Below, piece after piece: positions 11,175 through 33,088 of a stretch of DNA of 38,114 nucleotides (positions are counted from its first letter, which is position 1; each line of letters opens with the position of its first letter). The position numbers and the translations under genes were made by a program. The stretch covers positions 1-38,114 of the IMG/VR virus record IMGVR_UViG_3300038379_000845. The stretch is one strand, 5' to 3'. The notes beneath the pieces were generated by a model, which was not told the origin of the DNA, did no database searches, and saw nothing but the letters and a program-made list of their open reading frames with translations. This DNA comes from a virus. Lineage: Duplodnaviria; Caudoviricetes.

Positions 11175-12209
11175 ATGGCGAACATTGGAACGTTGTCGGT
11201 GCAGCTCGTGGCCGACGTGAACAAACTCGTCAAGGGTTTTGAGGCCGGCAAGAAGGCTACCGCCAAATTCGCGACGCAGGTGAAAACCGCGCTGGCCACG
11301 ATCGCGACTGGCGCTGTGTTCAACAGCCTCAAAAACGCGATTCTGGAAACGGTCGATTCCCTCGACGAGCTGGGAGAAACCGCCGGCAAGCTGGGTGTGT
11401 CGGTCGAAGCGTTGCAGGAACTGCGGCATGTGGCGCAGTTCTCCGGCGTGGAAGTCTCCGCGCTCGAGAAAGCCTTGGAGGTCATGTCCCGCCGATTGGC
11501 CGATGCCGCTGCCGAAAGCGGACCAGCGCAGCAGGCCCTGCAAAAGCTACGTCTGGACGCCGCCGCCCTCACGGCGCTCGCCCCGGAACAGCAGTTCGAA
11601 GCCATCGCCAAAGCGCTCGAGGCCGTCAACAACAGCAGCGAAAAACTGGCGCTGGCGAAGGATTTGTTTGGCAACGTCGAGATTCTGAAGACCATGCAGG
11701 GCGGCCTGCAGAACATTGTCGACTTGCGCAAAGAGGCCAGACAGATCGGCATCTTTTCCACGGAGGACGCCGAACGGGCAGGTGAACTGAACGACGCCAT
11801 CGACCGCATGGCCAAAACCGTGCGCACGGCATTTGGCGAGGCTGTCGCTGGAAATCTGGAAGACCTGTCGTTGATCGTCGACACGCTGTCCCAGGCGATC
11901 AACGGATTGATTAAGGCCGTCGGAGCCATCCCCAGGGCCGGTCGATTCTTGGGCGAAACTTTCGGCAACATGGCCGTGCCAACCACGCCTGGCGTCGCCG
12001 GGTCGGCGTTCAGTACGACGCCGACTGTGAATCCCGATGTGCAGCGACGGCTGCTGGCCGACCTGGATCGCCGCGTGTCACGCACCGGCGAGGGCTTTGT
12101 GGGCAACAAAGAAGTGCTGCGTCAACTGCAGGCGATCGCCCGGAACACGACGCCGGAACCGGATCAGCAACCGGCCACCACGGTCACCATCGCGCCGGCC
12201 AATTTTTGA
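11175..12209 (+). CDS. Tail tape measure protein (short, 344 aa)
   Basis: N-terminus MANIGTLSVQLVAD, AGKLGVSVEALQELRHVAQFSG and Ala-rich helical composition; follows the chaperone pair. Confidence 0.88.
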   Translation: MANIGTLSVQLVADVNKLVKGFEAGKKATAKFATQVKTALATIATGAVFNSLKNAILETVDSLDELGETAGKLGVSVEALQELRHVAQFSGVEVSALEKALEVMSRRLADAAAESGPAQQALQKLRLDAAALTALAPEQQFEAIAKALEAVNNSSEKLALAKDLFGNVEILKTMQGGLQNIVDLRKEARQIGIFSTEDAERAGELNDAIDRMAKTVRTAFGEAVAGNLEDLSLIVDTLSQAINGLIKAVGAIPRAGRFLGETFGNMAVPTTPGVAGSAFSTTPTVNPDVQRRLLADLDRRVSRTGEGFVGNKEVLRQLQAIARNTTPEPDQQPATTVTIAPANF

Positions 12210-13941: not shown

Positions 13942-15650
13942 TGACCAGCAGAGCCTTTTACCTGACGCCGCGCGACGCCGCCCGCATCAAACGCGTGATC
14001 AGTCGCGTTGAGCGGGGCGAGGCCTCGGCCACCAGCCGCAGCTTCGGCCGCGACGTGCTGCCGACGCTGGCCTTTGCCGACGAGTCCATCGCACCTAACG
14101 AGTCGGGACTGGTGACGTTCGCCGCCACCGCCTTCGACGCGCCGGTGCGGGGAACTCGGCAGGTCACCTGCTGGAACCTCTCGGCCGACACCCTGACCGA
14201 AGATTCCGACGCGTTTCAGATCGAGTGGTTTTCGCTCGAAAACGGTGGCGGCGCGTGGGTGCACTATTGCTGCGGCGGCACGGCCGCGCTCAACCTTGAC
14301 GCACTTTGTCTCGATCCGATCACGCCGGTCGACGAAACAGTCGTCACCCAGGTCCGCAAAAACAACATGCTGCGGCTGGTCGAGGACCAGGATGGCCAGG
14401 GGGCGCTGGATTTCGACCCGGGTCCGATCGAGGACGCGGTGCTGAACGCCATCGGCCCGCCCGACGATAACGGGGAAATGTCGCTAGTCTGGACGAACAC
14501 GCCCAAGCTGCGCAGCCTGGAGCTGTGCGAAGGCATGCGCATTGCCTGCGACGCCTCGACGACGACGGTGGATTCGGACCAGGTCGCCATCGACGACGAC
14601 ACCGTCATCGCCGACGCGAACTGGGCCCAGGGCTACACGTTCCGGGCACCCACCATCCAGCCGCCATCGCTCTACCCCGTCGATTCGCTCGATATCCCGG
14701 TGGACAGCGATACACTGCCTGTTGACCTGAGCGGACCCACGGCGGGCGGCGAATACGACCCTCCCTATATTGATGAACAGTACCTGTACGGACCTCCAGT
14801 ACCAGCGCGGCCCGGCGGCATCATGTACGCGGCCGGCGTCTGGCTCGGTACACGCGAACGGCACGTCCAAATTGATTTCCTCCCACCAGGCCTTTCGGGC
14901 ACGCTGACCATGCCCGACGGCGGCACGTTGACATTCGTCCATGGCGTGCTAGTCGGCCAGAACGCCGTGGCGTCGTTCGCGCTCGCCTACAGCTACTGGC
15001 AACCCACGCCTGACCAGGCCTGCGTCTGCCCCGATCCCGAGGTCTACGCGCCGTGCGAAATGCCGTCGACCGACGTCTGTAGCTACGACGACCTGTGCAC
15101 GTTCACCAGTCCTGGATTTGTTTACGGGGCCGGCTTCTTCCTGGACATTAACCGCCGCATCTCACACGGCAATCCCAATGGGCAACTCTATCGGCCGGAG
15201 ACCATCAGCCAGCGTCAGCGGATTACCTTCGTGAATCCAGGTTTCAGGTTGACCCGCGGCGCCGAGCTGCGACTGATCCCGCTAACCTTGGCTGGATCGT
15301 GCTCACCATCACAGACGTCATTCATTCAATTCGTGATCGGCGAGCGGGTGAATCCGGGCGGCGGAGACGGCATCGGTGCCGAGCTGCTGTCGCAGAAGAA
15401 CGGCGTGATCACGATGTACGAAAATCCCGACATCACGTACGTCGCCGGCGCTGAGATGGAAATCCGCGCGACACACCTCGCGGCCGATCAGTATCACCTC
15501 GAATTCCTGTATAACGGTGCCGTGATCCACGACGAACCGAGCGTCGAAATCCTGTGGTTCGACCCGTTCTACCACGAGGCGTTTATTGACTCCGCGGTGA
15601 ACGGCGACGAGCTGGCGGATTATGCGATCGAGCTGACGCCGTGTTTGTAG
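13941..15650 (+). CDS. Putative tail tip/fibre-associated protein
   Basis: 569 aa, acidic, Pro/Gly/Cys-rich, in the tail module; includes LTFVHGVLV. Confidence 0.55.
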   Translation: MTSRAFYLTPRDAARIKRVISRVERGEASATSRSFGRDVLPTLAFADESIAPNESGLVTFAATAFDAPVRGTRQVTCWNLSADTLTEDSDAFQIEWFSLENGGGAWVHYCCGGTAALNLDALCLDPITPVDETVVTQVRKNNMLRLVEDQDGQGALDFDPGPIEDAVLNAIGPPDDNGEMSLVWTNTPKLRSLELCEGMRIACDASTTTVDSDQVAIDDDTVIADANWAQGYTFRAPTIQPPSLYPVDSLDIPVDSDTLPVDLSGPTAGGEYDPPYIDEQYLYGPPVPARPGGIMYAAGVWLGTRERHVQIDFLPPGLSGTLTMPDGGTLTFVHGVLVGQNAVASFALAYSYWQPTPDQACVCPDPEVYAPCEMPSTDVCSYDDLCTFTSPGFVYGAGFFLDINRRISHGNPNGQLYRPETISQRQRITFVNPGFRLTRGAELRLIPLTLAGSCSPSQTSFIQFVIGERVNPGGGDGIGAELLSQKNGVITMYENPDITYVAGAEMEIRATHLAADQYHLEFLYNGAVIHDEPSVEILWFDPFYHEAFIDSAVNGDELADYAIELTPCL

Positions 15651-15700
15651 GATTCGGCTGCTTGAGCCTCTTTCTTGACCGATTAGTGAGGATTTGGAGA

Positions 15701-16951
15701 GTGCTGATCTACGATACGTTCCACACGCCGAAGTTGAGAATTTTTTCCATTGTGCCAGGCATGGCGGCTGGCGGGGCGGAACGCTGGTTCTGCACGCTGA
15801 CCCGGCACGCGAACACCGTGCGATACGTCGGCATGTCGATCCTGAACGGCCAGGCCATCGATCTGCACCGCGAGATCGCCGGCATGCCAAACACGTTCGT
15901 CCACTCGAACGATCCCTGGATCGTGTACGAAAAGTCAGTAGCTATCCTGCGCGAGTGCGGCGGGGCCGATCTGCTGCTGATCTGGGGCCTCGGAACTCAG
16001 GCGAACGACTTTATCGACCGCTGCAAGCTGCCAGTCGTGCAGGTCAGCCACAGCGAGCCAGCACTGGCCGAGGCCGGCATCCACCAGTCCTTCCGGCAAT
16101 ACCTGGAGATGATCCGCGGCGGTAAGGCGAACTTCTTGGCCGCGGTCAGCGAGTCCGCCAGCCGGTTGTTCGAACCGCACCGCCGCGAGCAGGCCGGTGG
16201 AGTGCACGTGGTCCACAACGGCATCGAGGTTGATCGGGCCTTGGCCGGCCGCGGTCGCCAGCAAATGCGACGGCTACTGCAGCTGCCGCAAGAGGCCAAG
16301 GTGATTTTCTACTGTGGTAGAATCTCGCACGAGAAGCAGCCGCACCGGTTGGTCGAGGCCATGCATTTATTGCCGAACGATTGGCATTTGTTGATCAATG
16401 GACATGGCGAAAAGGAACAGCGGGAGAAACTCGACGGACTCGCGCAGTCCCTCAGCCCGTCGGTTTTCTCGACGCCCGGGAAACCGCTGGGCCGAGTTTC
16501 AATCCTTCAGCCACACCTCTACGGCATCGGCGATTTGATAGGAGCTTGTGATGTGCAAGTGCTCTGCAGCCAAACGGAAGCGTTCCCGCTCGTCGCCATT
16601 GAAGCCTGGCTCGGGCGGATCCGCTTCATCACGCCGGCGTTCGCGACCATGCAAGAGCTGTTTACGGCGTATAACGCTGGCGAACCGTTCTGCCAAACCA
16701 TCCCGCTCCCCGTGAAGCCGCGCGACCTGGCCGACGCCATCCTGGACGACAGCGACGCCGAACAGCATAAGGCCACGGCCTTCAAGATCGCCATGAACAA
16801 CTTTACAGCGGCCCGCATGTGCGCGAAGTGGGAGGAGTACTTTCACTGGTGCCACCAACGCTGGATATATTCCTCACAGATCGGCGAGGTCTACAACGTC
16901 CGGCCAAACGCCGCGAATCCAGGTATCGAGCCAGCGGCCCGCGAAAACTAA
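15701..16951 (+). CDS. GT-B (GT4-like) glycosyltransferase
   Basis: GGAER, VVHNGI, GRISHEKQ and SQTEAFPLVAIEA (EX7E). Start trimmed to GTG after GGAGA. Confidence 0.9.
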   Translation: MLIYDTFHTPKLRIFSIVPGMAAGGAERWFCTLTRHANTVRYVGMSILNGQAIDLHREIAGMPNTFVHSNDPWIVYEKSVAILRECGGADLLLIWGLGTQANDFIDRCKLPVVQVSHSEPALAEAGIHQSFRQYLEMIRGGKANFLAAVSESASRLFEPHRREQAGGVHVVHNGIEVDRALAGRGRQQMRRLLQLPQEAKVIFYCGRISHEKQPHRLVEAMHLLPNDWHLLINGHGEKEQREKLDGLAQSLSPSVFSTPGKPLGRVSILQPHLYGIGDLIGACDVQVLCSQTEAFPLVAIEAWLGRIRFITPAFATMQELFTAYNAGEPFCQTIPLPVKPRDLADAILDDSDAEQHKATAFKIAMNNFTAARMCAKWEEYFHWCHQRWIYSSQIGEVYNVRPNAANPGIEPAAREN

Positions 16952-16987
16952 ACGCCGCGAGTAGCCCGCCGCTGGCTCAACTTTATT

Positions 16988-17034
16988 GGTCACCGGTCAC
17001 TGGCCACCGGTCACCGGCCACCGGTCACCGGCCA
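16988..17034. repeat. Heptamer tandem repeat GG(T/C)CAC(C/T), about 6.5 copies
   Basis: GGTCACC GGTCACT GGCCACC GGTCACC GGCCACC GGTCACC GGCCAC, intergenic. Confidence 0.9.
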
Positions 17035-17041
17035 CAAATCT

Positions 17042-17425
17042 ATGATTTCCCACGAACACCGCTGTATCTTCGTTCACGTCCCGCGCACTGGCGGGACCTC
17101 GATAGAACTAGCGGTCACGGGCACCGATTGGCAATTCTCGCACCCGCGCGAAAAGCATCTACGGTGCAGCCAGGCCCGCGACATGTACGGCGACCTGTGG
17201 CACGAATACCTGACGTTCACCAGCTACCGCAACGACCAGGAGCGCTTGCAATCGGGACTGTCGAAGGGCTTCAATCGCGACGGCGTGTGGTGCCATCCCT
17301 GCGAGTGGTGGATCGACCTGTGCGTGGACGTGGTCCTGGATTTCCGCACCCTCTGGCGTGATTGGCGGCAACTGGCAAAACGGCTCGGTGTGCAGCAGGA
17401 GATTCTGGTGCCGTGGATACGCTGA
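17042..17425 (+). CDS. Short sulfotransferase-family-like protein
   Basis: MISHEHRCIFVHVPRTGGTSIE resembles the 5'-PSB loop, and FTSYRN resembles the 3'-PB motif. Shorter than usual. Confidence 0.65.
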   Translation: MISHEHRCIFVHVPRTGGTSIELAVTGTDWQFSHPREKHLRCSQARDMYGDLWHEYLTFTSYRNDQERLQSGLSKGFNRDGVWCHPCEWWIDLCVDVVLDFRTLWRDWRQLAKRLGVQQEILVPWIR

Positions 17426-18327
17426 AAATCCGGCTCGGCGAACTCGAGGAACTGAACTGGTGGCACCCGATCGAAACCGATTGGTTCCGCCAGCTGCTGT
17501 CCGAGTTTGGTGTGCAGATTGTCACCTCTGGCCAGGACGTCGATTGGATTGACGTGCGGTATGGCAGCACGATCACGGGCCCCACGATCCTATTTGACAG
17601 GCATGATTCGTCGCTCGTCACGCCGATGGCCATCCACGAGAGCAAGCGGCCTGAGGTGCTGGCGATCACGATCCCCCTGCTGGCCAGGCAGCCAGAACTG
17701 TCGATGGCCAAGCACGTGTACAATCGCGGCGAAGATTACGCTCGGCCGAAGAAACCGGTGGGCGTGATCAACACCATGCCCTGGTATCGTTGCGAGAGTG
17801 AGTTCATGCGGGACCTGATGATCCCACCCAAGACGATCACCGCATCCTTCTGCGGCACCAGCCAGTACGGCCACATTGCCTACTGCACCAATCACCGCCG
17901 ACGCATGATCGATCGTTTCCCGCGGCACAATACCGTCTGCGTGCTGCGTGGGGCCCCTGAATATTTTTTCCAGACCGAGCTGCTGCTGGACGTGCTCCTA
18001 CGTTCGCAGGTGGTCGTCTGCCCATGGGGCGTGTGCGAGATTTCCGTGCGGGATTACGAGGCTGTGCTGGGAGAATGCATGATCGTCAAACCGCGGCAAT
18101 CGGCGATGGACACCACGGAGAATCCGTGGACGGATGGCAACACAGTGTGGTGCGATCCGGATTACAGCGACCTAACCGACGCGATCTACTGGGCCGCCGC
18201 CAAACGCGATCCCGATTATTTGCACGCGTTGGCCGAACGGATGAAGGCGGTGGTGTACGACCCGCGGGTACTGGCCCAGCGAATGGCGGCCGAGCTACGG
18301 CGGATTTATCAGGAGGCGATGGGATGA
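17413..18327 (+). CDS. Putative glycosyltransferase (exostosin-like C-terminus)
   Basis: LLRSQVVVCPWGVCEISVRDYEAVLGECMIVKP; start uncertain. Confidence 0.65.
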   Translation: MDTLKIRLGELEELNWWHPIETDWFRQLLSEFGVQIVTSGQDVDWIDVRYGSTITGPTILFDRHDSSLVTPMAIHESKRPEVLAITIPLLARQPELSMAKHVYNRGEDYARPKKPVGVINTMPWYRCESEFMRDLMIPPKTITASFCGTSQYGHIAYCTNHRRRMIDRFPRHNTVCVLRGAPEYFFQTELLLDVLLRSQVVVCPWGVCEISVRDYEAVLGECMIVKPRQSAMDTTENPWTDGNTVWCDPDYSDLTDAIYWAAAKRDPDYLHALAERMKAVVYDPRVLAQRMAAELRRIYQEAMG

Positions 18328-18989
18328 CCGAACGGCACGCTTGGTATGACGGGTTTGAGCACGAGAAACAGTTTTGGGAAGGCTGGGCCAAACGAGGCGA
18401 GGCTCAACTGCTGGGGGCGGTGCGGCCGCTGGAACCGGCGATCGCCGAGCTGCTGCCTGGCAATGAGGTGCGACGTACCACGTACAGGATACTAGACGTT
18501 GGTTCAGGGGCCATCAGTACACTTGGCCGAGAGTGGCATGGACGTCCGGTGCTGATCACCCAGGTCGACGTGCTGGGCTACTGGCACGAGGCCTTGTTGC
18601 GGCGATATGGCGTCCGCCAGCCGAACACCGTTTACTCCTGCCGCGGCGAGGATATGCTGCATTTCCTGGAAGGTCGGCAGTTCGATTGCGTGTGTGCGAT
18701 CAATTCGCTGGATCACACCGAGCACCCGGACCTGGTGCTCAGGGCCATGGCCGAGCTGACCGTGGGCCCAATCTTTCTGCGGCACTATGCCTGCGTGGGC
18801 GAGCGGCTGAAATACGCCGGTCTGCACCAATGGAACGTCGACGTCTGCGACGGCCGGATGTTGATCTGGGGCCGCGGTGGCAGCCCCATGATCGACGTCA
18901 ACGAGTTACTTGGACTGTCTGGCGTCGTCCAGCTTGACCACGCGGCAGCGAATCCGACCGTCACTTGGTTTTGGCTCGGTCATTCGTAA
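18324..18989 (+). CDS. Class I SAM-dependent methyltransferase
   Basis: ILDVGSG motif I and FDCVCAINSLDH; AGGAGG RBS; ATGA overlap with the previous gene. Confidence 0.85.
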   Translation: MTERHAWYDGFEHEKQFWEGWAKRGEAQLLGAVRPLEPAIAELLPGNEVRRTTYRILDVGSGAISTLGREWHGRPVLITQVDVLGYWHEALLRRYGVRQPNTVYSCRGEDMLHFLEGRQFDCVCAINSLDHTEHPDLVLRAMAELTVGPIFLRHYACVGERLKYAGLHQWNVDVCDGRMLIWGRGGSPMIDVNELLGLSGVVQLDHAAANPTVTWFWLGHS

Positions 18990-18993
18990 GCGT

Positions 18994-19629
18994 TCAATTC
19001 GGCGTGCGGACATACAACGCGTCGCCCCAAGCTCGCTCGGGGGCGACCGTTTTCAGATTACGGTAGCCATGGCCGCGGAGGTACGAATCGATCTGTTCGA
19101 CCTCGCAGCAGCCACGGTACACCTGTTCAAAATTGACTTCGACATAAACTCCCGCGAAGCGTTGCAGCAGCAGTCCGCAGCCCTTCAGCACGTCCAGCTC
19201 CGTGCCCTGGACGTCGATGTTCAAAAAGTCGATCCCGTCCAGATTGATACCGCGCGTGAGAACCAGCGAATCGAATCGCTGGGTGACGATCTGCACCACC
19301 TGCTCGACCGTGATCCGCGGATAGAGTTCCGTGTGGGTGCCCATGGGCAACAACGAGGTCGAACCACCAGCCAGGTACAGAGGCACGCGATAGCGACCGT
19401 CGGACAAGCACGCGTCGTACAATTCGTGCTGGCACAATTGCAGCCGCCGCGGGCGCAGGTTGGCCTTGAGCAGCCCCAGCCGATACGGGTTGGCCTCGAT
19501 CCAGATCACCCGCTGAAAGCCTGCACGCTCGTACAATTCGCGTTCCTGGGCCTCGTCCGCGCCGACGTGCACCGCGCCGGTGAAGCGGTGTCCCGCCAAG
19601 CGGCAGCATTCTTCTGGTTCAATGTACAC
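18994..19629 (-). CDS. FkbM-family methyltransferase
   Basis: AVHVGA, VIWIEANP, IDFLNIDVQGTELDVLKG, VYVEV, WGDALY. Confidence 0.92.
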   Translation of the reverse strand: MYIEPEECCRLAGHRFTGAVHVGADEAQERELYERAGFQRVIWIEANPYRLGLLKANLRPRRLQLCQHELYDACLSDGRYRVPLYLAGGSTSLLPMGTHTELYPRITVEQVVQIVTQRFDSLVLTRGINLDGIDFLNIDVQGTELDVLKGCGLLLQRFAGVYVEVNFEQVYRGCCEVEQIDSYLRGHGYRNLKTVAPERAWGDALYVRTPN

Positions 19630-19640
19630 TTATCACCTAT

Positions 19641-19699
19641 TCAGTACTCAGTACTCAGTACTCAGTACTCAGTACTCAGTACTCAGTACTCAGTACTCA
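19641..19699. repeat. (TCAGTAC)8 heptamer microsatellite
   Basis: Eight perfect copies plus TCA, filling almost the whole gap between two divergent genes. Confidence 0.97.
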
Positions 19700-19704
19700 C
19701 TGCC

Positions 19705-20430
19705 ATGCTATGCGACGCCTTCATTTGCTGCGCGCCGAAAGACGAGTCCGCACTGCCGGACGTGGTGGCATCGCTGCGCAGCTACACGGACGTACAGGAT
19801 ATTTACGTCTGTTCACCCAGTCCGTTGCAATGCCAGGTCGATGTGCTGAACGTGCTGGATCACGAAGTGCTTGATTGCCGGCCTGACCTGTGGCGCTATC
19901 GGCCGAACTGGATCAAGCAGCAGTTTTTGAAACTATTTCAACATGTCACCCGCGATTGGTACTTTGTCGTGGACTGCGACACGATCCTGCTGCGGCAGCT
20001 CGATCTGTTCGTGGATGGCCGACCAGTTTGGCTGCTGGGGGCCGAGCAGTCCCATCAACCGTACTGGAAATTTCAAATCAAAATGTGCGAGCTGTATCGT
20101 AACTGCGAGCACTCATTCATTTCGCACACCGGGCTGTACGATCGAGCGGTGATCGACGCGTTGCTGCGCGATCACCATCACACCGTCGATTCGTTCCTCC
20201 GGAAAAGCTACGATATCGTGGCCGAGAACTGCTTGCCGTCGGAGTCGCAAATCTACGGCACGTACGTGGTGCAGCAGGGCGGTTTCGGCTATATCTTCCG
20301 CCGGCCGAAGCAGTGGGAAGGCACGGTGTTGCCACCGCGCGAATGGCTGTTGGCGGAGGGGTTCGAGTTGGCCACATGTCACAGGTGGGAGCTGAGTACG
20401 GAGTACGGAGTACGGAGTACGGAGTACTGA
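19705..20430 (+). CDS. Putative GT-A/nucleotide-diphospho-sugar transferase-like protein
   Basis: WIKQQFLKL and YFVVDCDTILLR (DxD). The true start is ATG 19705, not 18910. Confidence 0.7.
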   Translation: MLCDAFICCAPKDESALPDVVASLRSYTDVQDIYVCSPSPLQCQVDVLNVLDHEVLDCRPDLWRYRPNWIKQQFLKLFQHVTRDWYFVVDCDTILLRQLDLFVDGRPVWLLGAEQSHQPYWKFQIKMCELYRNCEHSFISHTGLYDRAVIDALLRDHHHTVDSFLRKSYDIVAENCLPSESQIYGTYVVQQGGFGYIFRRPKQWEGTVLPPREWLLAEGFELATCHRWELSTEYGVRSTEY

Positions 20431-20480
20431 GTACTGAATACTGAGTACGGAGCACTGAGTACGGAGTACTGAGTACGGAG
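20394..20480. repeat. (GAGTAC[G/T])12 degenerate heptamer repeat
   Basis: Twelve units spanning the stop of the upstream gene and supplying the GGAGG RBS of the next; inverted relative to the 19641 tract. Confidence 0.95.
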
Positions 20481-20486
20481 GAAGCA

Positions 20487-21245
20487 ATGCTCGGCGTAAT
20501 CGTCTTCACTCACCGCCGGCCGTTGCAGCTGCACGGCTACCTCCAATCGCTGTACGCGTGCCTGGAGCCGACCACGGTGATTGCCGTCGTGGGGTCCGGC
20601 GATTACCGAATTACCGAACAGGCGTTTCCACGGGTCCGCTGGGTGCCGGAGAATGAGCATGGGTCGTTCGGCCACACGCTGCTGTACGAGCTCGAACAAC
20701 TGAAGACGCAGTATCTGTTGTTTGGCTGCGACGATGTCGTGTGGTTCCGGTCGCCTGGAGTGTACTGGCGTGCCTTGTCGTTTTCAGACTGCCTAGGGTT
20801 CTCCTGCCGGCTGGGAAAGAATATTGAGGGATTCAGATCACGCCGCTGGCAGTGGTCCGACTATCCGGCCAGCTCACACTGGGGTTATCCTCTCGAGCTG
20901 ACCGGCACGATCTACCGGCTGGCCGACCTGCGGCCGATCGTGCAGGCCGTCGGGCCCGAGGTCCGCAATCCAAACCACCTGGAAGAGCAGATGACGGCTC
21001 ACCTGCCGTGGCATTTGCCGGTGATGGAATGCCCGAAACAGCAATGCTGCATTAGCCTGATGGCAAATACGGTACAGACTGAAACTTCAGATGGCACCGG
21101 CGCGGTGCGGCCGGAATGGAGCCCCGAGGCGCTTCACCAAAAATATGAAGCCGGTTGGCGGCTAAACTGGATGGACGCGAGGTTTGAAACGTTCGACAAC
21201 GTCTACGAAACGAATTACCTTCCGCTGCGGAAAATCGGTGACTAA
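20487..21245 (+). CDS. Putative GT-A glycosyltransferase
   Basis: VIVFTHRRPLQLHGYLQSL, YLLFGCDDVVW, FSCRLG, WGYPLELTG, NPNHLE. Confidence 0.7.
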   Translation: MLGVIVFTHRRPLQLHGYLQSLYACLEPTTVIAVVGSGDYRITEQAFPRVRWVPENEHGSFGHTLLYELEQLKTQYLLFGCDDVVWFRSPGVYWRALSFSDCLGFSCRLGKNIEGFRSRRWQWSDYPASSHWGYPLELTGTIYRLADLRPIVQAVGPEVRNPNHLEEQMTAHLPWHLPVMECPKQQCCISLMANTVQTETSDGTGAVRPEWSPEALHQKYEAGWRLNWMDARFETFDNVYETNYLPLRKIGD

Positions 21246-23491: not shown

Positions 23492-24130
23492 TCAGTTCAA
23501 TCGCCGTGAGATATCCACCAGCAACCGCCGGTCCCGCGAGGAAGCTCGCCGGAATCGTCTGATCAGGGTGCGTTCGTCCTCATCCCGCTGGTGAAGTTCG
23601 TCAGCAGTATAGAATTGCCGCGGCAGTTGCACGTCGCCGGAGGCCTGCAGTAATAACCGCAGTGGATCCAGGTAATGCGACATCACACCCAGGTGGCAGC
23701 CATGCACGATTCGCCCTGCTTCAGCATTGGCCTGCGACCATAGATTGATCCCCAGCCTTCGCAAACCCTGGGGCGTGAATTTTGATACCCCCGCGGCCTG
23801 GCAGATGCGATCCATCTCGCGGCGCAATTGCCGATGACAGCTTGTCAGATTAAATAGCCGATCGGAATCTCGTGGCAACGATGCAATGTGGCGCCGAACA
23901 ACGTTGTTCAATGGAATCCGATGGATGCGCCCCGTTTTGTTACTCCGCAGCTCAATGTTCTCGGCTACATTCTGCCACCTCAGCTCCTTCAGATCAGACA
24001 ACGCAGAGGTCGCTGGTTCGAATCCAGTCGCCCCGACTATTCCGATGATGACTTTTAGGGTAATATGCACGTGCGACCAAAGCAAATCCATGGGGCGAGA
24101 TTCGTGGATGAATTCCTGAGCGTCATTCAC
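23492..24130 (-). pseudogene. int: Tyrosine recombinase/integrase catalytic domain, N-terminally truncated at the att site
   Basis: LSDLKELRW, KTGR.HRIPL, TPQGLRR and MSHY are present. The first catalytic Arg and the N-terminal domains are absent, replaced by antisense tRNA sequence (VGATGFEPATSA). Confidence 0.7.
23997..24039 (+). other. attP-like core: 3' half of a tRNA gene (possibly tRNA-Val GAC)
   Basis: GACAA-CGCAG-AGGTC-GCTGG TTCGAAT CCAGT-CGCCCCG-A corresponds to part of the anticodon loop, 3' anticodon stem, variable loop, T arm and acceptor strand. No 5' half is present. Confidence 0.85.
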
Positions 24131-24571: not shown

Positions 24572-24648
24572 GTTTTCCGCCTGCTGCTTCTTGAGCAGGC
24601 GGCGGATTGAAACGGCGGCGGATTGAAACGGCGGATTGAAACTGAAAC
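24572..24648 (+). repeat. Solitary CRISPR-repeat-like unit ending ATTGAAAC plus three nested 3'-end copies
   Basis: GTTTTCCGCCTGCTGCTTCTTGAGCAGGCGGCGGATTGAAAC (9-bp stem CCGCCTGCT/AGCAGGCGG), then GGCGGCGGATTGAAAC, GGCGGATTGAAAC and TGAAAC. Confidence 0.65.
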
Positions 24649-24661
24649 GAGCAGGTGCAGG

Positions 24662-24970
24662 ATGCTGACTCTCTCGCGGGATGTGCAAGAGTCGATCGTG
24701 GTGGTGGGGCCGGGGGGCGATTTACTCGAAATCTGCGTACAGCAGATCAAAGCAGGCCGAGTACGCCTGGCCTTCACCACTCCTCCCGAATACACGATCT
24801 GTCGGGCGGAGGTCTATCGGTCGCAAAAATCTGGCCGAGCCGTGGACGAATGCTCGTCGAGGCTGTTGTCCAAGTGCCCGACCTGCCAACACGTGCGGGT
24901 CGAACTGCGAAAGGACGGCTTGGCCTTCTGCCGGGCGTGCGACGCGCTGTTTGATCCCAGCGTGCAGTAG
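24662..24970 (+). CDS. csrA: CsrA/RsmA-like RNA-binding protein with C-terminal zinc ribbon
   Basis: MLTLSRDVQESIVV...RVRLAFTTPPEYTICRAE follows the CsrA pattern, then CPTC...CRAC. Confidence 0.75.
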   Translation: MLTLSRDVQESIVVVGPGGDLLEICVQQIKAGRVRLAFTTPPEYTICRAEVYRSQKSGRAVDECSSRLLSKCPTCQHVRVELRKDGLAFCRACDALFDPSVQ

Positions 24971-25319: not shown

Positions 25320-25456
25320 ATTAAGCGAGACACTCTGCTGAGGAGCCGGATCTCACCGGCGAAAGTGAGAACAGCTACGGACCTCGCGCGCCGTGTAGCA
25401 CTCACTATTACTCTGCACGATGGACGGCGGGGCGCTTGCCCCGTCCGTCCTATTTT
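25320..25456 (+). ncRNA. Candidate tracrRNA
   Basis: Successive hairpins; TTACTCTGCA (25408-25417) is complementary to repeat TGCAGAGTGA; ends in a 12-bp GC hairpin plus TATTTT just before the cas gene. The 5' boundary is a guess. Confidence 0.55.
25422..25456 (+). terminator. Terminator-like hairpin
   Basis: GGACGGCGGGGC-GCTT-GCCCCG(T)CCGTCC followed by TATTTT. Confidence 0.65.
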
Positions 25457-25470
25457 CACAAGGGGGAAAG

Positions 25471-26787
25471 ATGATTCGTGCGACACGTATCGAGTTGATC
25501 GTGCCGAAGGAACGCAAGCCAATCTGGAAGGAATTGGCGGAGCAATGCCAGCAGGCGACTAATCGCTTGTGGCAGGTCTGGTTGTGTCACCATGTGGCTA
25601 ACGATTCTGCCAGCAAAATGCAGGGTTATATGGATCGATATCAGTCTTGGAAAACCGACAAGATCGGTGACAAGCCGACGTGTCCCGTGAAACCGATTGA
25701 CAAGGAGTTATCAGGCAAACTCTATCACGACCTGAGCCAACGCTATCCGGCGCTGAATAGCCGCACGCGAGGCTTGCTGCAGAACAAGTGGCAGCAGACC
25801 GTCCGCACGCGTAAGGCCAGCCGCGGGAGTCTGTCGGGCTGGCTGTCGATCTTGTTTTGCCGGGAATCGATCCCCAGTTTTCAGCGGCCCGTGCCAATCC
25901 CCTTCGACAAGCAAAATGGTCGTCTCAGCAGCAGCGGCACTGGCAGGTACGTGTTGCAGGTCCGTATCGATCGCGTCGCGACGACGAATGGTAAACGGCC
26001 TGCTGGAAAATCGACGTTCGACGAGTGTGTGATGCTGCTCGGCAAACGCAAGATGTGGTCGGTCAAATTGATTGTCGACCGGATTCTGAGCGGCGAGTAC
26101 AACTTTAAGGGCTCGGCCCTATGCTACGACCGTGGCAAGTGGTTCGCGCTGGTCTCGTACGAGATGCCCGCGACCAGCGACGTGGTGCTGGATGCGGACA
26201 AGGTACTGCACGTTTGGCCAGCGCATCGAGGACCGGACAAGCGTCGCCATGAGCATCCGCGCGACGACCTGCGTCGCGGACCGTGGCTGTTCAAGATTGC
26301 CGGCCAACAACCTCGCTTCCTAGGCGGCGACGGAAAACATGTCAGTCGCTTTCGCGACCTCTTGACGCGCGGCCGCTTCGAGCGGCAGGAGCATTACCGC
26401 TGGGCCGGTTCCGCGCAGAAGGGACATGGACGCCAGCGTGCCATCGCCGCCTGGACGAAGCTGGGTTCACGGTGGAAGCATTTCGTCAAACGCTACAACC
26501 ACGAGATAACGCGTCGTGTGCTGAACATCGCCATGGAGCATCGCTGCGGCCAAATCGTGTACCACCAGCCGTTGAACACGCGGCGTGAGCGATGCTTCCT
26601 CACGGGACGTGGCAACGTCGGCGCGCGGACAGCGTGGGACTATTTCCAGTTCGGCACCCTGCTGGCGAGCAAGTGCGAGCAATACGGGATCAAGTGTGAG
26701 ATCAGGAAGAGAGAGCAGGTTCGCGATAATGGCTTTGACGAGCGAGGAAGAGATGAGACAAATTCCGACGTCGTGCCTGTTGTGTGA
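25471..26787 (+). CDS. cas12f: Cas12f-like type V effector, predicted nuclease-dead (438 aa)
   Basis: Collinear Cas12f1-like blocks: ILFCRESIPSFQRPVPI, IVDRILSGEY, KWFALVSY, LDADKVL, KGHGR, RYNHEITRRVLNIAMEHRCGQI, WDYFQFGTLLASKCEQYGI. RuvC-I GIDLG is replaced by HVWPA and RuvC-II MEDL by YHQP; the zinc finger and RuvC-III are missing. Lies next to a CRISPR array. Confidence 0.85.
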   Translation: MIRATRIELIVPKERKPIWKELAEQCQQATNRLWQVWLCHHVANDSASKMQGYMDRYQSWKTDKIGDKPTCPVKPIDKELSGKLYHDLSQRYPALNSRTRGLLQNKWQQTVRTRKASRGSLSGWLSILFCRESIPSFQRPVPIPFDKQNGRLSSSGTGRYVLQVRIDRVATTNGKRPAGKSTFDECVMLLGKRKMWSVKLIVDRILSGEYNFKGSALCYDRGKWFALVSYEMPATSDVVLDADKVLHVWPAHRGPDKRRHEHPRDDLRRGPWLFKIAGQQPRFLGGDGKHVSRFRDLLTRGRFERQEHYRWAGSAQKGHGRQRAIAAWTKLGSRWKHFVKRYNHEITRRVLNIAMEHRCGQIVYHQPLNTRRERCFLTGRGNVGARTAWDYFQFGTLLASKCEQYGIKCEIRKREQVRDNGFDERGRDETNSDVVPVV

Positions 26788-26992
26788 CCGGCTGGTCACG
26801 CAATCGGCCATGGCGGTGCTCAGTGGTTCGGCACCGTTGTGTCAGGAACATCGAACCTATCGATCCGTAATCAGGAGATTGACAGATGTCCACCAAGAAT
26901 TGGCGCACGAAATTGAACCTGGCAAGAGATCTGAAAAAACGGGGGATTCAACTGCTGTTCGAACGCATGACCGTGCTGGCGCAGGTCCATGA
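26753..26992 (+). CDS. Possible small zinc-binding protein
   Basis: GAGGAAGAG then ATG; CLLC...CQEH; overlaps both neighbours. Confidence 0.3.
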   Translation: MRQIPTSCLLCDRLVTQSAMAVLSGSAPLCQEHRTYRSVIRRLTDVHQELAHEIEPGKRSEKTGDSTAVRTHDRAGAGP

Positions 26993-27404
26993 CGATCCTG
27001 AATTCCGCGCCTGGTGCGCTGCCGAAAACCGCGACCTGTACAACGAACTCGATCACGATGTGGACGACACCGCGGCTACATTCATGACACTTAAGGCGGT
27101 GCTCGACCATTTCCCCAATCGCGAAGATTGGCAGACTAAGGGCTTGCCCACCATGATCGCGGAAATCCAGGTCAAGCAGCGCGCGGAACGGAAGCCGCGG
27201 GAAACCGTGAGCCACAAGCAGCGGGCCGACGACGCGGAGAAACTAGTGGAACAACTGCAAGACGAAGTCGATCGTCTGCGGGCCGAGAATTCGCTGCTTC
27301 GGGAACAAGTCGCCGAACTCAAAGAGTCCTTGGCCTTCGCCCACCGCACGCTGAGCAACGACTTACGAACGCGGGGTACCACCCCATGTAAGAATGCAGG
27401 GTGA
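26886..27404 (+). CDS. Uncharacterised helical/coiled-coil protein between the cas gene and the array
   Basis: AGGAG RBS; heptad-rich LVEQLQDEVDRLRAENSLLREQVAELKESL; the stop codon lies inside CRISPR repeat 1. Confidence 0.75.
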   Translation: MSTKNWRTKLNLARDLKKRGIQLLFERMTVLAQVHDDPEFRAWCAAENRDLYNELDHDVDDTAATFMTLKAVLDHFPNREDWQTKGLPTMIAEIQVKQRAERKPRETVSHKQRADDAEKLVEQLQDEVDRLRAENSLLREQVAELKESLAFAHRTLSNDLRTRGTTPCKNAG

Positions 27405-29194
27405 ATGAGAGTCAAGAAATGCAGGGTGAATGAGAGGCTGCGAGAAGTCGCCCACGAATGCCAGCGGTTCGACCAGCGGTTGATAGTTGACGTCGGCCAC
27501 GAGCTGCACCGACAACGTGTACCACCCCATGTAAGAATGCAGAGTGAATGAGAGAGCAGTCGGCTACAACCTCTTGACGAGTATCACGTACCACCCCATG
27601 TAAGAATGCAGAGTGAATGAGAGAAATCAACTTCTGGGGCCGCATCTGGGGCGGCGGTGTACCACCCCATGTAAGAATGCAGAGTGAATGAGAGGCGAGG
27701 AGGGCGAGCGATGACAGTCACACAACGTGACTGCGCGACCAGGTACCACCCCATGTAAGAATGCAGAGTGAATGAGAGGTCGCACTCGCCGGAACTCCGT
27801 CGATGCTGAACAGGTACCACCCCATGTAAGAATGCAGAGTGAATGAGAGTCGGCGAAGATCGCCGCGGTTGGTTCGGTCGTTAGGTCGTACCACCCCATG
27901 TAAGAATGCAGAGTGAATGAGAGACGTGACGGAGCTCTTGCAAGGCTTCAACGTACCACCCCATGTAAGAATGCAGAGTGAATGAGAGTCCTTGTTGCCC
28001 ACGAATCCCTCGCCGGTCCGGGAGTACCACCCCATGTAAGAATGCAGAGTGAATGAGAGTGAAGCAAGACCGGCCATCGCTCACTTCAGCATTTGGTACC
28101 ACCCCATGTAAGAATGCAGAGTGAATGAGAGACATGCCTCAGCTCTTGGAGAGCCTCGACCGACACGTACCACCCCATGTAAGAATGCAGAGTGAATGAG
28201 AGTGAGGCCCCTTTGGGTTGCGCGTTGGTCTACATCTACGTACCACCCCATGTAAGAATGCAGAGTGAATGAGAGCAGTCACCGGCCATGATGCACCTCC
28301 CGCGCTTCAGCGTACCACCCCATGTAAGAATGCAGAGTGAATGAGAGGCCCACGAACTGTGGATGTTTGAGCGCCTGGATTTGTACCACCCCATGTAAGA
28401 ATGCAGAGTGAATGAGAGAGAGGATGTCATCGGTTGCGGCCGCGGCTGGGGAGTACCACCCCATGTAAGAATGCAGAGTGAATGAGAGGAGTCATCCGAC
28501 TGCTCACACGCGAGTGTGTTGCCAGTGTACCACCCCATGTAAGAATGCAGAGTGAATGAGAGAGGCTGTCGCGAACAACCTGGTCGCCTGGTTGCGGTAC
28601 CACCCCATGTAAGAATGCAGAGTGAATGAGAGAGGGAGATGCGGCCGAACGTTAAATCGCTCACGGGTACCACCCCATGTAAGAATGCAGAGTGAATGAG
28701 AGGTGCCAGGTCGATTACCCGACTACTCAATATCGGATTGTACCACCCCATGTAAGAATGCAGAGTGAATGAGAGGCGTATCACCTCGGCAAAAGTGATC
28801 GAGACTGCATCGTACCACCCCATGTAAGAATGCAGAGTGAATGAGAGACTAAAGGCCGCAGCAAGCCGCCGCCGAGCACGCGAGTACCACCCCATGTAAG
28901 AATGCAGAGTGAATGAGAGATTACTCACAACCAACGGCCGGCCGAATAGTGACAGTACCACCCCATGTAAGAATGCAGGGTGAATGAGAGAGTCAGGTCC
29001 TCGCCGGTGCCATCGATGGCGCGGCTGTACCACCCCATGTAAGAATGCAGGGTGAATGAGAGTGCACGACCGAGCTATTCGCCTCATGACCAAAGCAGTA
29101 CCACCCCATGTAAGAATGCAGAGTGAATGAGAGTCACACAACGTGACTGCGCGACCAGGTACCACCCCATGTAAGAATGCAGAGTGAATGAGAG
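27376..29194 (+). CRISPR. CRISPR array: 25 repeats of 36 nt, GTACCACCCCATGTAAGAATGCAGAGTGAATGAGAG, 24 spacer intervals
   Basis: First repeat 27376-27411, last 29159-29194. Repeats 1, 22 and 23 carry an A>G variant (GCAGGGTG). Most spacers are 33-38 nt; outliers are 25, 29, 48 and 82 nt. Partial repeats occur at about 27415-27436 and 29200-29220. Orientation is inferred, not proven. Confidence 0.98.
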
Positions 29195-29213
29195 ATCCTG
29201 AGTGAATGAGAGA

Positions 29214-30122
29214 ATGAGAGCACCAACAAGCGGCATCTACCACGACATCGACTTCTCCACCTACCTGTCTTGGGACGCGATCAACAACAGTTCGCTCGGT
29301 CCATTGCGGATCAGCCCGGCGCACTACAAGATGCGCTTGGAAATTCCTCAGGACGATACGCAGGCCCTGCGGCTAGGGCGGCTCTGCCACATGGGCAAAT
29401 TCGAGCCGGCGGCGCTGCTGAAACGGTTTTGGGTGCTGGACGAATCGGCCCTGGCCGCGGAATGCCGCACGGCCAAGGGCGCGCCGGTCGAGTCGGTTGG
29501 CTCGGCCAAACGAACCAGGGATTGGGAGGAAAAGCTGGCAGGGATGCAAGCTCGTAACGGCAGCAAGGAGCAGGTCACGCAGGCCGAGCTTGATCAGCTA
29601 GTCGGTGTTTGCACCGCGCTGGCAGATCATCCCGTGGCCGGCCCGCTGACCAGGAGTGCACACAGGGAAGTGTCTTGGGTCCGCAAGATTCGTAGCGGGA
29701 GGAAAGTGATTGCGACGCTGAAAGGACGCATCGACCTGGTGGAACCGGGTGTCTTGCTGGCCGATTTTAAGACGGCTAGCGACATTACCGACGACGGCAT
29801 TGCCTGGTCCATCTGGCGCTGGGGCTACCATCGCCAGGCGGCGTTTTACCAGGACGCCTGGTGCGACCTCGCTGGCGAATGGTTGCCGTTCTGGCTGATC
29901 TTCGCCGAGCCAATGCCGCCGTACTCGGTACGCTGCGCGGTGCTGAACGAAGACGACATCGCGCAGGGACGGCGCGAATATCAGGCGGCCATCGAGCGGA
30001 TCATCGAATGTCGACGGCTTGATTTCTGGCCAGGCCCGTCCGATCCACCCGAGTTCCGCTTGCCGTTCAGAATGCGAACTGGGGTGGAGATCGAGGTGGA
30101 CGGGGAATTAGTGCAACTGTGA
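29214..30122 (+). CDS. PD-(D/E)XK nuclease (RecE/exonuclease VIII-like, DUF3799-type)
   Basis: GIYHDIDFSTY, SPAHY, ALRLGRLCH, LKGRIDLV, LADFKT, YHRQAAFY. The ATG comes from a partial CRISPR repeat. Confidence 0.88.
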   Translation: MRAPTSGIYHDIDFSTYLSWDAINNSSLGPLRISPAHYKMRLEIPQDDTQALRLGRLCHMGKFEPAALLKRFWVLDESALAAECRTAKGAPVESVGSAKRTRDWEEKLAGMQARNGSKEQVTQAELDQLVGVCTALADHPVAGPLTRSAHREVSWVRKIRSGRKVIATLKGRIDLVEPGVLLADFKTASDITDDGIAWSIWRWGYHRQAAFYQDAWCDLAGEWLPFWLIFAEPMPPYSVRCAVLNEDDIAQGRREYQAAIERIIECRRLDFWPGPSDPPEFRLPFRMRTGVEIEVDGELVQL

Positions 30123-30139: not shown

Positions 30140-30196
30140 TACTGAGTACTGAGTACTGAGTACTGAGTACTGAGTACTGAGTACTGAGTACTGAGT
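30140..30196. repeat. (TACTGAG)8 heptamer microsatellite
   Basis: Eight perfect intergenic copies; reverse complement of the 19641 unit. Confidence 0.97.
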
Positions 30197-31829: not shown

Positions 31830-33088
31830 AAGCTGGCGGCATGGAGCTGATGAAGTTCCGCCGATTGATGCGGCGGCTGGGAGAATCGAAACGCGGAATT
31901 GTGGGGCTGCTGGAGTGCCTGTGGTACTCGGCCGCGCACGATTGCCCGGCGGGAGACGTGGGGAAATTCACGAACGAGGAAATCGCCATCATGTGCGACT
32001 GGTCGGGCGATCCCGACGAGCTGGTGGCGGCGCTAGTCGCCTCGGGCTACCTGGACGAGCACGAACTCCACCGGCTGGTGATTCACGATTGGCACGTGCA
32101 CTGCCCGAACTGGGTGCGAGGCATCCTGGCCAGGCACGGACGGCAGTTCGCGAACGGGGAGCCGTCGAACCGCAAAGAGGCCGCGGCGGACAACTCGCAA
32201 AGGGGATCGATGGCCGCCGCGGCCGGTGGACGGCTCAGTAATCAGTACTCAGTACTCAGTACTGAGTGCAGTAGTGAGTCCGCGGCGAATTTTAATGACC
32301 ACGCGGCGGCTGGGAATACCGTTTTCGCTTCTATTACCCCAGATCGTCCAGATTGCCAATCGAACGGCGAGAAACGTCTAGTGGAAATTTCTGGGGCGGC
32401 TGGGAATACCGTTTTCGCTTCTATTACCGCAGATCGCCCAGATTGCCAATCGAATGGCGACAAACGTCTAGCGGAAATTTCTGGAAAAGCTCCTAAGGAG
32501 GCTACTATAGGAACCTCCTCTAAGGAGCCTCCTATAGGAACGTCCTCAGGGGAACCTACTATCAAGTCAAGTCAAGTCAAGTCAAGTCAAGTCTATTTGG
32601 TCAAGAGTCAAACCGTAGCTAGCCACAGCGCTGATACGCAGCCCAGCTTGACCAGTTTGACCAGAGATTTTTCGTCAGTGTGGCTTGACCTGACGGCGGA
32701 CTTCCTGAGGGAGCTGGGACGCGTGCCGCCAGGACAGGACGTCAGATTTGTCACGCAACTGGCCTGGCTGGTCGCCAGAGGCCGCCAGATAGCCCCGCAG
32801 GTCAGATCAGCCATCAACGCTGTCCGGTGCGTCTCCGTCCATCCCAGGGCCCCCTGCGCGTATCTGCGTGTGGTCCTAGCAGAGAGCCTCGGCGGTGAGC
32901 AGCAGTTGCGGGTGCTGCTGAAGGAATGTCCAACCAGAGAGGCGTGCGAGGCGATCACCAGGTTGGCACTCGAGGCGAACCTGCCGATCCGGATCGTCGC
33001 CCCGAGCATCAGGCTACGATCAGATTTCGACGAGGAGAGAGCCCGTCAAAAACTGGCCGCGGACCTGGAAAGGCTGGCGGCGGGATGA
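31826..33088 (+). CDS. Putative replication initiator protein
   Basis: N-terminal KFRRLMRRL...VGLLECLW...LVAALVASGYLD...IHDW (winged-helix initiator-like) and a central low-complexity region made of DNA repeats. Confidence 0.7.
   Translation: MKAGGMELMKFRRLMRRLGESKRGIVGLLECLWYSAAHDCPAGDVGKFTNEEIAIMCDWSGDPDELVAALVASGYLDEHELHRLVIHDWHVHCPNWVRGILARHGRQFANGEPSNRKEAAADNSQRGSMAAAAGGRLSNQYSVLSTECSSESAANFNDHAAAGNTVFASITPDRPDCQSNGEKRLVEISGAAGNTVFASITADRPDCQSNGDKRLAEISGKAPKEATIGTSSKEPPIGTSSGEPTIKSSQVKSSQVYLVKSQTVASHSADTQPSLTSLTRDFSSVWLDLTADFLRELGRVPPGQDVRFVTQLAWLVARGRQIAPQVRSAINAVRCVSVHPRAPCAYLRVVLAESLGGEQQLRVLLKECPTREACEAITRLALEANLPIRIVAPSIRLRSDFDEERARQKLAADLERLAAG
32305..32593. repeat. Repeat cluster inside the initiator gene (probable origin)
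   Basis: 90-bp direct repeat (32305-32394 / 32395-32484), three ~27-bp units containing CT(A/C)CTAT (about 32490-32562), then an (AAGTC)n run. Confidence 0.75.

Follow-up and report, generated by a model that had tools for sequence, protein, structure and literature searches.

The inactivation of type V effectors in CRISPR systems is described as a recognized trend (PMC12669027; PMC10691335), and several non-cutting branches are already known. Cas12m (type V-M) is described as a non-cutting effector of mobile elements that protects by binding DNA without cleaving it (PMC11013384; PMC11656645, the latter also summarizing mini-arrays that act in inter-virus competition), and the CasMu-V and Cas12k CRISPR-associated transposons (CASTs) are reported to combine an inactivated Cas12 with partner proteins, CasMu-V having lost RuvC-III (PMC10910872; PMC12669027). 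The system considered here lies on a stretch of 38,114 bases (IMG/VR record IMGVR_UViG_3300038379_000845; hereafter ‘the window’, meaning that whole stretch), which is a phage record with genes for terminase, portal, protease, capsid and tape measure, and comprises a Cas12f-fold effector that has lost its cutting motifs, a trans-activating CRISPR RNA (tracrRNA), two small linked genes (a zinc-finger gene and a ‘helper’) and a CRISPR array. Non-cutting type V systems being already known, what appears to be new is a phage-borne clade of dead Cas12f that is accompanied by a helper pair.

The likeness of this cassette to Cas12f1 (type V-F; AsCas12f1, PDB 7wju, 8j12 and 8dzj) extends to fold and domain order (at ~21% identity), to a tracrRNA with an anti-repeat, and to repeats of 36 nucleotides (nt); unlike Cas12f1, however, this system is without the catalytic aspartate and glutamate, the zinc finger and RuvC-III, is borne by a phage, and includes two extra linked genes. 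With the sigma-E-linked dead Cas12f proteins (dCas12f; PMC13472631; PDB 9n9c), as they are described, it shares a dead Cas12f, a C-terminal truncation and a structural match (Z 22.6) that is level with that to AsCas12f. In sequence, nevertheless, the effector scores 101 bits with active AsCas12f and 44 bits with 9n9c, a difference that points to catalysis having been lost separately. Furthermore, no rpoE or other sigma gene was found near the effector in the window or in the long loci scanned, and, in contrast to the single fused guide and mostly lost array reported for the sigma-linked proteins, arrays of at least two repeats were present in 26 of 35 related loci (gathered in three scans, and including this phage’s own contig and some near duplicates), one more being eroded and eight contigs ending early. 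One dCas12f cluster in that same account also keeps arrays, the published example being a genome of the Chitinophagaceae whose guide is directed at an efflux promoter, and overlap with the present clade, compared by description, is possible.

By analogy, Cas12m is likely a functional counterpart of the phage system, although it belongs to another lineage (Z ~13 versus 22) and measures ~600 amino acids, whereas the phage system has a tracrRNA and the helper pair. The CASTs differ in that no Mu or Tn7 transposase was found among the open reading frames (ORFs) scanned in the window or in related records, the long loci instead carrying tyrosine integrases. Cas12r of the Thermus Lalka phages (10.64898/2026.04.20.719267) is likewise described as a type V system encoded by phages, its spacers being directed at integrative elements that compete with them, and by that description differs in effector and host. 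Finally, V-U43 and V-U44 are named among the Cas12 branches whose catalytic sites are altered, and V-U40-43 lie near Cas12f1 (PMC10691335); the phage dCas12f clade with its helper pair was not found in the literature searched, a comparison that lay outside the V-U43/V-U44 member lists, and the clade may fall among those groups.

An earlier note on this DNA, made from its letters, had proposed a nuclease-dead Cas12f, and structure model and profile search agree on that fold. The effector ORF is intact at 438 amino acids, and AsCas12f chains were its top matches both in a sequence search (E 2e-15) and in a profile search (E 6e-28). Its structure model (predicted local distance difference test, pLDDT, 88.5) matched AsCas12f in Foldseek at E 1.5e-21 and aligned with 7wju_A over 351 residues (Z 22.5, root-mean-square deviation 5.6); PADLOC gave Cas12f and Cas12u3 as its best models. 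Aligned with the AsCas12f chains and with a Cas12f-like protein that is intact in phage Mgbh1, the effector has a tryptophan (W249) at the RuvC-I aspartate and a histidine (H365) at the RuvC-II glutamate, and the match stops at the strand preceding the zinc finger, thus short of both the zinc finger and RuvC-III, as had been claimed.

These losses extend across the family. Among 200 homologues of at least 380 amino acids, pooled from a word search (67 proteins) and a full profile search (the best 150 of 233 clusters at E <=1e-30), the RuvC-I aspartate was present in none (arginine occupying that position in 99), and the RuvC-II glutamate in seven, while their tails contain neither a zinc finger nor a RuvC-III motif. 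Basic residues of the helical region (R295, R302, R305, R310, K317 and R323) are lysine or arginine in 90-98% of the homologues, and the four closest, least saturated homologue pairs give ratios of non-synonymous to synonymous substitution rates (dN/dS) of 0.04-0.18, indicating purifying selection. Because the motifs are gone family-wide, the basic residues kept and dN/dS low, the loss of catalytic motifs is, as judged from these alignments, old and selected rather than a product of decay; the exaptation suggested in the earlier note thus gains support (also from the tracrRNA covariation described below), and close pairs of homologues, for which it had raised relaxed selection as the contrary sign, showed purifying selection instead. 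The clade numbers 150 clusters or more (50% identity), the effector core measuring ~415 amino acids, and a quick tree did no more than separate 40 sampled members from two intact, long-branched outgroups. A search of 50,697 GenBank phages with the effector returned four distant records and no more, and one with the window array returned no match. Three family members (P0183, P0113 and P0119) contain large internal insertions, that of P0183 resembling a DnaJ-type CXXCXGXG motif.

A tracr-like RNA, also anticipated by the earlier note, was upheld by covariation. The core of this RNA (~120 nt in length) is conserved in 25 of the 35 loci, as a rule immediately 5′ of the effector, and its consensus fold contains 18 pairs, seven of them with two-sided changes. 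In the window, the first-hairpin loop (TCTCA, 25351-25355) pairs with TGAGA at the 3′ end of the repeat, and an anti-repeat follows at 25406-25417. Across all 20 loci that have both core and repeat, the loop forms at least five Watson-Crick pairs with the 3′ end of its own repeat, spanning 11 distinct repeat ends, whereas non-cognate combinations pair in 15%; the anti-repeat run similarly averages 9.4 pairs in cognate and 5.5 in non-cognate combinations. Since the loop pairs with its own repeat end in every one of these loci despite their differing repeats, the covariation indicates that the tracrRNA is real, and the orientation of the array is therefore the plus strand. The core pattern occurred in seven viral stretches, six adjoining an effector and the seventh having a helper upstream at a contig end; it was not found in loci L015-L019, and Rfam contained no relevant family.

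The 438- and 172-amino-acid ORFs and the 25-repeat array that had been reported are all present. The full repeats span 27376-29194, 22 being identical and three having a single change, with a partial repeat at 27418-27436; of the 24 intervals between repeats, 21 measure 29-38 nt and the others 25, 48 and 107 nt. The description of the array as long and homogeneous therefore holds for the window and fails for the family, where arrays mostly contain 2-11 repeats that are often varied within and between loci. Repeats 1, 22 and 23 have a common variant, and spacer 24 (25 nt, 29134-29158) is identical to the 3′ portion of spacer 4 (48 nt, 27695-27742); both features look like signs of recombination within the array. 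Arrays stand upstream of the effector in L012 and L015-L019, those of L015-L019 lying on both sides with mixed repeat types, and the array of L014 (8200-8960) is eroded to ~12-nt repeat ends with irregular spacing, its genes being intact.

The spacers point toward related phages. Four of them resemble three sites in the phage’s own tape-measure gene (32/33, 30/35, 28/35 and 22/29 identities), and all 20 mismatches are synonymous, for which reason related phages are the most likely source of the protospacers, the other candidate being later escape of the phage’s own gene through silent changes. Both spacer 7 and spacer 10 start at the same base and differ in silent letters, which fits two acquisitions at one 5′ motif. 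The suggestion in the earlier note that spacers are aimed at relatives is accordingly supported, and its narrower claim, that morphogenesis genes are the targets, stands for the tape-measure spacers while other matches point elsewhere. Two contigs of run X1 are matched, each with a single mismatch, by spacer 14 (over 31 nt) and spacer 23 (over 35 nt), and the spacer 14 match may be the start of an excisionase-type gene; spacer 3 of L027 (5233-5269) matches the dead-Cas12f effector gene of L026 at 32/37 and its own effector gene at 27/37. Targets may thus not be limited to morphogenesis, and carriers may target one another’s CRISPR module. When 162 distinct family spacers were compared with the fetched loci and contigs, the near-self matches and L027 spacer 3 were the only clear ones, and the exact 25-nt core of spacer 23 occurred in IMG/VR only in this phage’s two contigs. 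A cytosine at -2 was seen at four of four window sites (two being own-genome proxies and one counting two unmatched letters) and is absent from the L027 match, and is accordingly a weak hint of a 5′ motif. For type V-F, in which an asymmetric dimer forms on one guide and DNA binding depends on a protospacer-adjacent motif, this cytosine is the only such hint here.

The further idea that near-self spacers are tolerated by a non-cutting system was not supported by their arrangement. The 32/33 self match, whose leading repeat has been lost, lies 49 nt behind the nearest partial repeat and thus not where a guide would be, and each of the remaining three has 3-5 mismatches within the first 20 nt. 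Self-targeting thus looks to be avoided rather than tolerated, and, because the best self match is unguided and the others mismatched, it is suggested that the phage would be harmed if its own late gene were bound.

It is considered moderately probable that the cassette provides an RNA-guided, non-cutting block against competing related phages. According to this proposal, the effector would load guides formed by tracrRNA and CRISPR RNA, and the resulting ribonucleoprotein would bind matching DNA of co-infecting or superinfecting related phages with the aid of a short 5′ motif (C at -2); the bound effector would then stall the rival’s transcription or replication, as reported for Cas12m, and the two linked helper proteins would assist or regulate it. 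Spacers would be gained from outside the cassette, through host Cas1-Cas2 or the neighboring phage recombination genes. Several observations weigh against this proposal: approximately 18 of the 24 window spacers are without a target match; the X1 contigs matched by spacers 14 and 23 are 151 nt long at a depth of ~2.5, and their phage origin is putative; and matched targets lie inside coding regions rather than promoters, where a binder of 438 amino acids may form a weak block. In addition, strand bias among the spacers was not significant (65 of 151 sense-like, p 0.10, in a test that is ~78% accurate), the dN/dS pairs exclude the window protein, whose comparisons are saturated, and the permutation test of the tracrRNA (0 of 5000 reaching the loop or anti-repeat values) ignores kinship among loci. 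Host targets may also exist.

The proposal of a non-cutting block may also be too simple as regards a stand-alone protein, because the cassette includes two conserved partner genes. The earlier note’s miniature roadblock was right in its Cas12f-fold protein without catalytic motifs and incomplete in its partners, having missed the zinc-finger gene. That gene overlaps the effector tail in the +1 frame and has its own GAGGA and an ATG at 26753. Within the overlap, the proportions of non-synonymous (pN) and synonymous (pS) differences are 0.30 and 0.62 in the zinc-finger frame and 0.41 and 0.26 in the effector frame, and in five loci (L014-L017 and L019) it occupies a separate place behind the array and starts from an ATG of its own; for these three reasons the reading-frame evidence indicates that it is a real gene. 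A CxxC-x18-CxxC version was found in 18 loci, and four divergent loci carry at the same place a zinc finger with a spacing of 9-11 residues, so that a zinc-finger gene precedes the helper in all 25 of 25 loci. A programmed frameshift fusing the zinc finger to the effector was rejected as a general rule, the gene being separate in those five loci. Comparison with the C-terminal zinc finger of Cas12f by hhalign gave a short, weak match (probability 11% over 17 columns), and no RuvC-III motif follows the zinc finger of the small gene.

The search for homologues with the same layout recovered this arrangement repeatedly. Helper homologues occur in 25 of the 35 loci, eight of the other ten having <=312 nt downstream and two ending at the zinc-finger gene, and both genes are present in every one of the 25 loci that reach far enough. 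This constancy lends some weight to a second reading, which is doubtful as it stands, in which dead Cas12f serves only for targeting and the effector role falls to the zinc-finger and helical proteins; recruited to the bound site, these would spread along or bridge the target DNA or load a host factor on it, all three proteins being needed for interference. The pair shifts as a unit to a position behind the array in L014, L015 and L019; helper-led searches found it solely on effector-carrying records (2/2 viral loci, 1/401 Planctomycetota genomes); and sigma-linked dCas12f is described as recruiting a partner (PMC13472631). The helper is modelled as six helices and a coiled coil (pLDDT 95). 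Its leads in the ESM Atlas, a DUF3102 cluster at 0.85 and Plasmid_parti_N clusters at 0.81-0.83, fall below the 0.9 mark, and BFVD gave a weak DUF3102 row (E 0.86). The fold search with its model, however, returned nothing at E 0.001 in PDB or BFVD and otherwise generic coiled-coil rows (Z ~6) that barely cover the N-terminal domain; neither small protein was assigned to a family at curated cut-offs, the helper being without a Pfam match; no conserved nuclease-like motif was seen in the helper alignments; no effector-helper fusion was found among 212 homologues, a weak test for longer fused forms; and a linked helical protein could equally autoregulate the operon. A three-protein, nuclease-free weapon, in which dead Cas12f would mark the rival genome and the zinc-finger/coiled-coil pair would silence or immobilize it beyond the bound site, is thus tentative; if true, it would be a type V interference mode without a described counterpart.

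Less probable still is a module that acts mainly as an RNA-guided regulator, whether of host genes or of the phage’s own late genes and lysis-lysogeny switch. Such a role would recall the array-linked dCas12f cluster described with guides to efflux promoters (PMC13472631), and each of the four near-self spacers lies antisense to the phage’s own tape-measure mRNA. Against it, the best full-length match in 401 Planctomycetota genomes was 29/36, for a GC-rich spacer, and none of 21 marginal hits was convincing; the near-self matches, moreover, are unguided or mismatched as described above. That the effector still cleaves through a rearranged site, or that the module is a decaying relic, is very improbable: rearranged TnpB/Cas12 catalytic sites are described (PMC10691335), D390 and H319 are kept in 83% and 81% of effector homologues, and some related arrays are eroded (as in L014), but no RuvC motif retains a conserved acidic residue, RuvC-III is deleted in 200 of 200 homologues, D390 aligns to a non-catalytic W-x-Y motif of Cas12f, and open frames, low dN/dS and tracrRNA covariation speak against decay.

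Table 1. Positions in the window of the cassette components and of the resembling tape-measure gene.
Feature	Position	Strand	Remark
tracrRNA: hairpin loop TCTCA, conserved nested stems, anti-repeat, terminator hairpin and U tract	25340-25457	+	covariation; 5′ end approximate
Cas12f-fold effector, without RuvC-I D (W249), RuvC-II E (H365), zinc finger and RuvC-III	25471-26787	+	
Small C4-type zinc-finger gene, CxxC-x18-CxxH in the window, 79 amino acids	26753-26992	+	conserved core to ~26914
Helper gene, 172 amino acids, six-helix domain and C-terminal coiled coil	26886-27404	+	last codons enter first repeat
CRISPR array: 25 complete repeats of 36 nt and a partial one, with an eroded 3′ end	27376-29220	+	
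Own tape-measure gene with three sites like four spacers (11190-11222, 11397-11431, 12078-12112)	11175-12209	+	

The distribution of the family bears on the host. Two of the 35 loci sit in Pirellulaceae and Planctomycetaceae genomes, and a Planctomycetota host is proposed for that reason; among the 401 Planctomycetota genomes, the effector family was present in one (the seed genome), and the window repeat was not found in those searched. Long loci carry tyrosine integrase, excisionase, RecE/RecT and replication genes. As had been noted for the window, cas1, cas2, a transposase and a sigma factor were not seen among its scanned ORFs; similarly, the ORF scan of G004-G006 and of 11 long loci revealed no Tn7/Mu transposase, although small or remote genes could escape, and cas1 was not found in three related phage records (one complete) or in one of the two host genomes.

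The naturally dead Cas12f proteins gain a large clade from this analysis; where its genomic setting could be seen, it consists of integrase-bearing phages, two of which lie in Planctomycetota genomes. The analysis also makes testable both the idea that small phages fight with non-cutting CRISPR and the question of spacer gain in arrays without cas1/cas2. The linked pair may reveal a new route from RNA-guided binding to interference, and the compact parts (the effector core, the short tracrRNA, and pairing rules derived from covariation) make a candidate natural scaffold for CRISPR interference or base editing.

The cassette is preceded by an Xre-type helix-turn-helix gene and a CsrA-like gene and followed by genes for a RecE-like nuclease, a RuvC resolvase and a replication initiator, which place it in the phage early region; its neighbors include integrase, RecE/RecT and replication genes. 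The CsrA-like gene (24623-24970 in the window, 3407-3757 in L003) ends in the window copy in a CxxC-CxxC tail. An integrase-like ORF of 212 amino acids (23492-24130, minus strand) matches part of the tyrosine integrase profile only, and a stretch like the 3′ half of a tRNA (~24000-24040), where tRNA-like contigs of run X1 pile up, lies within its 5′ part as a probable attP core; no whole tRNA was found there by ARAGORN, and integration may reshape the start of this gene, or the integrase may be truncated. Tandem 7-nt repeats (GTACTGA/TCAGTAC, in both orientations) occur at four intergenic or gene-edge sites (19638-19700, 20390-20480, 30140-30196 and 32234-32267). Finally, a gene cluster at 15641-21245 includes a glycosyltransferase and an FkbM methyltransferase, a similar place in G005 being occupied by glycosyltransferases, a radical SAM gene and a NeuB gene, and this cluster possibly serves virion or DNA glycosylation.

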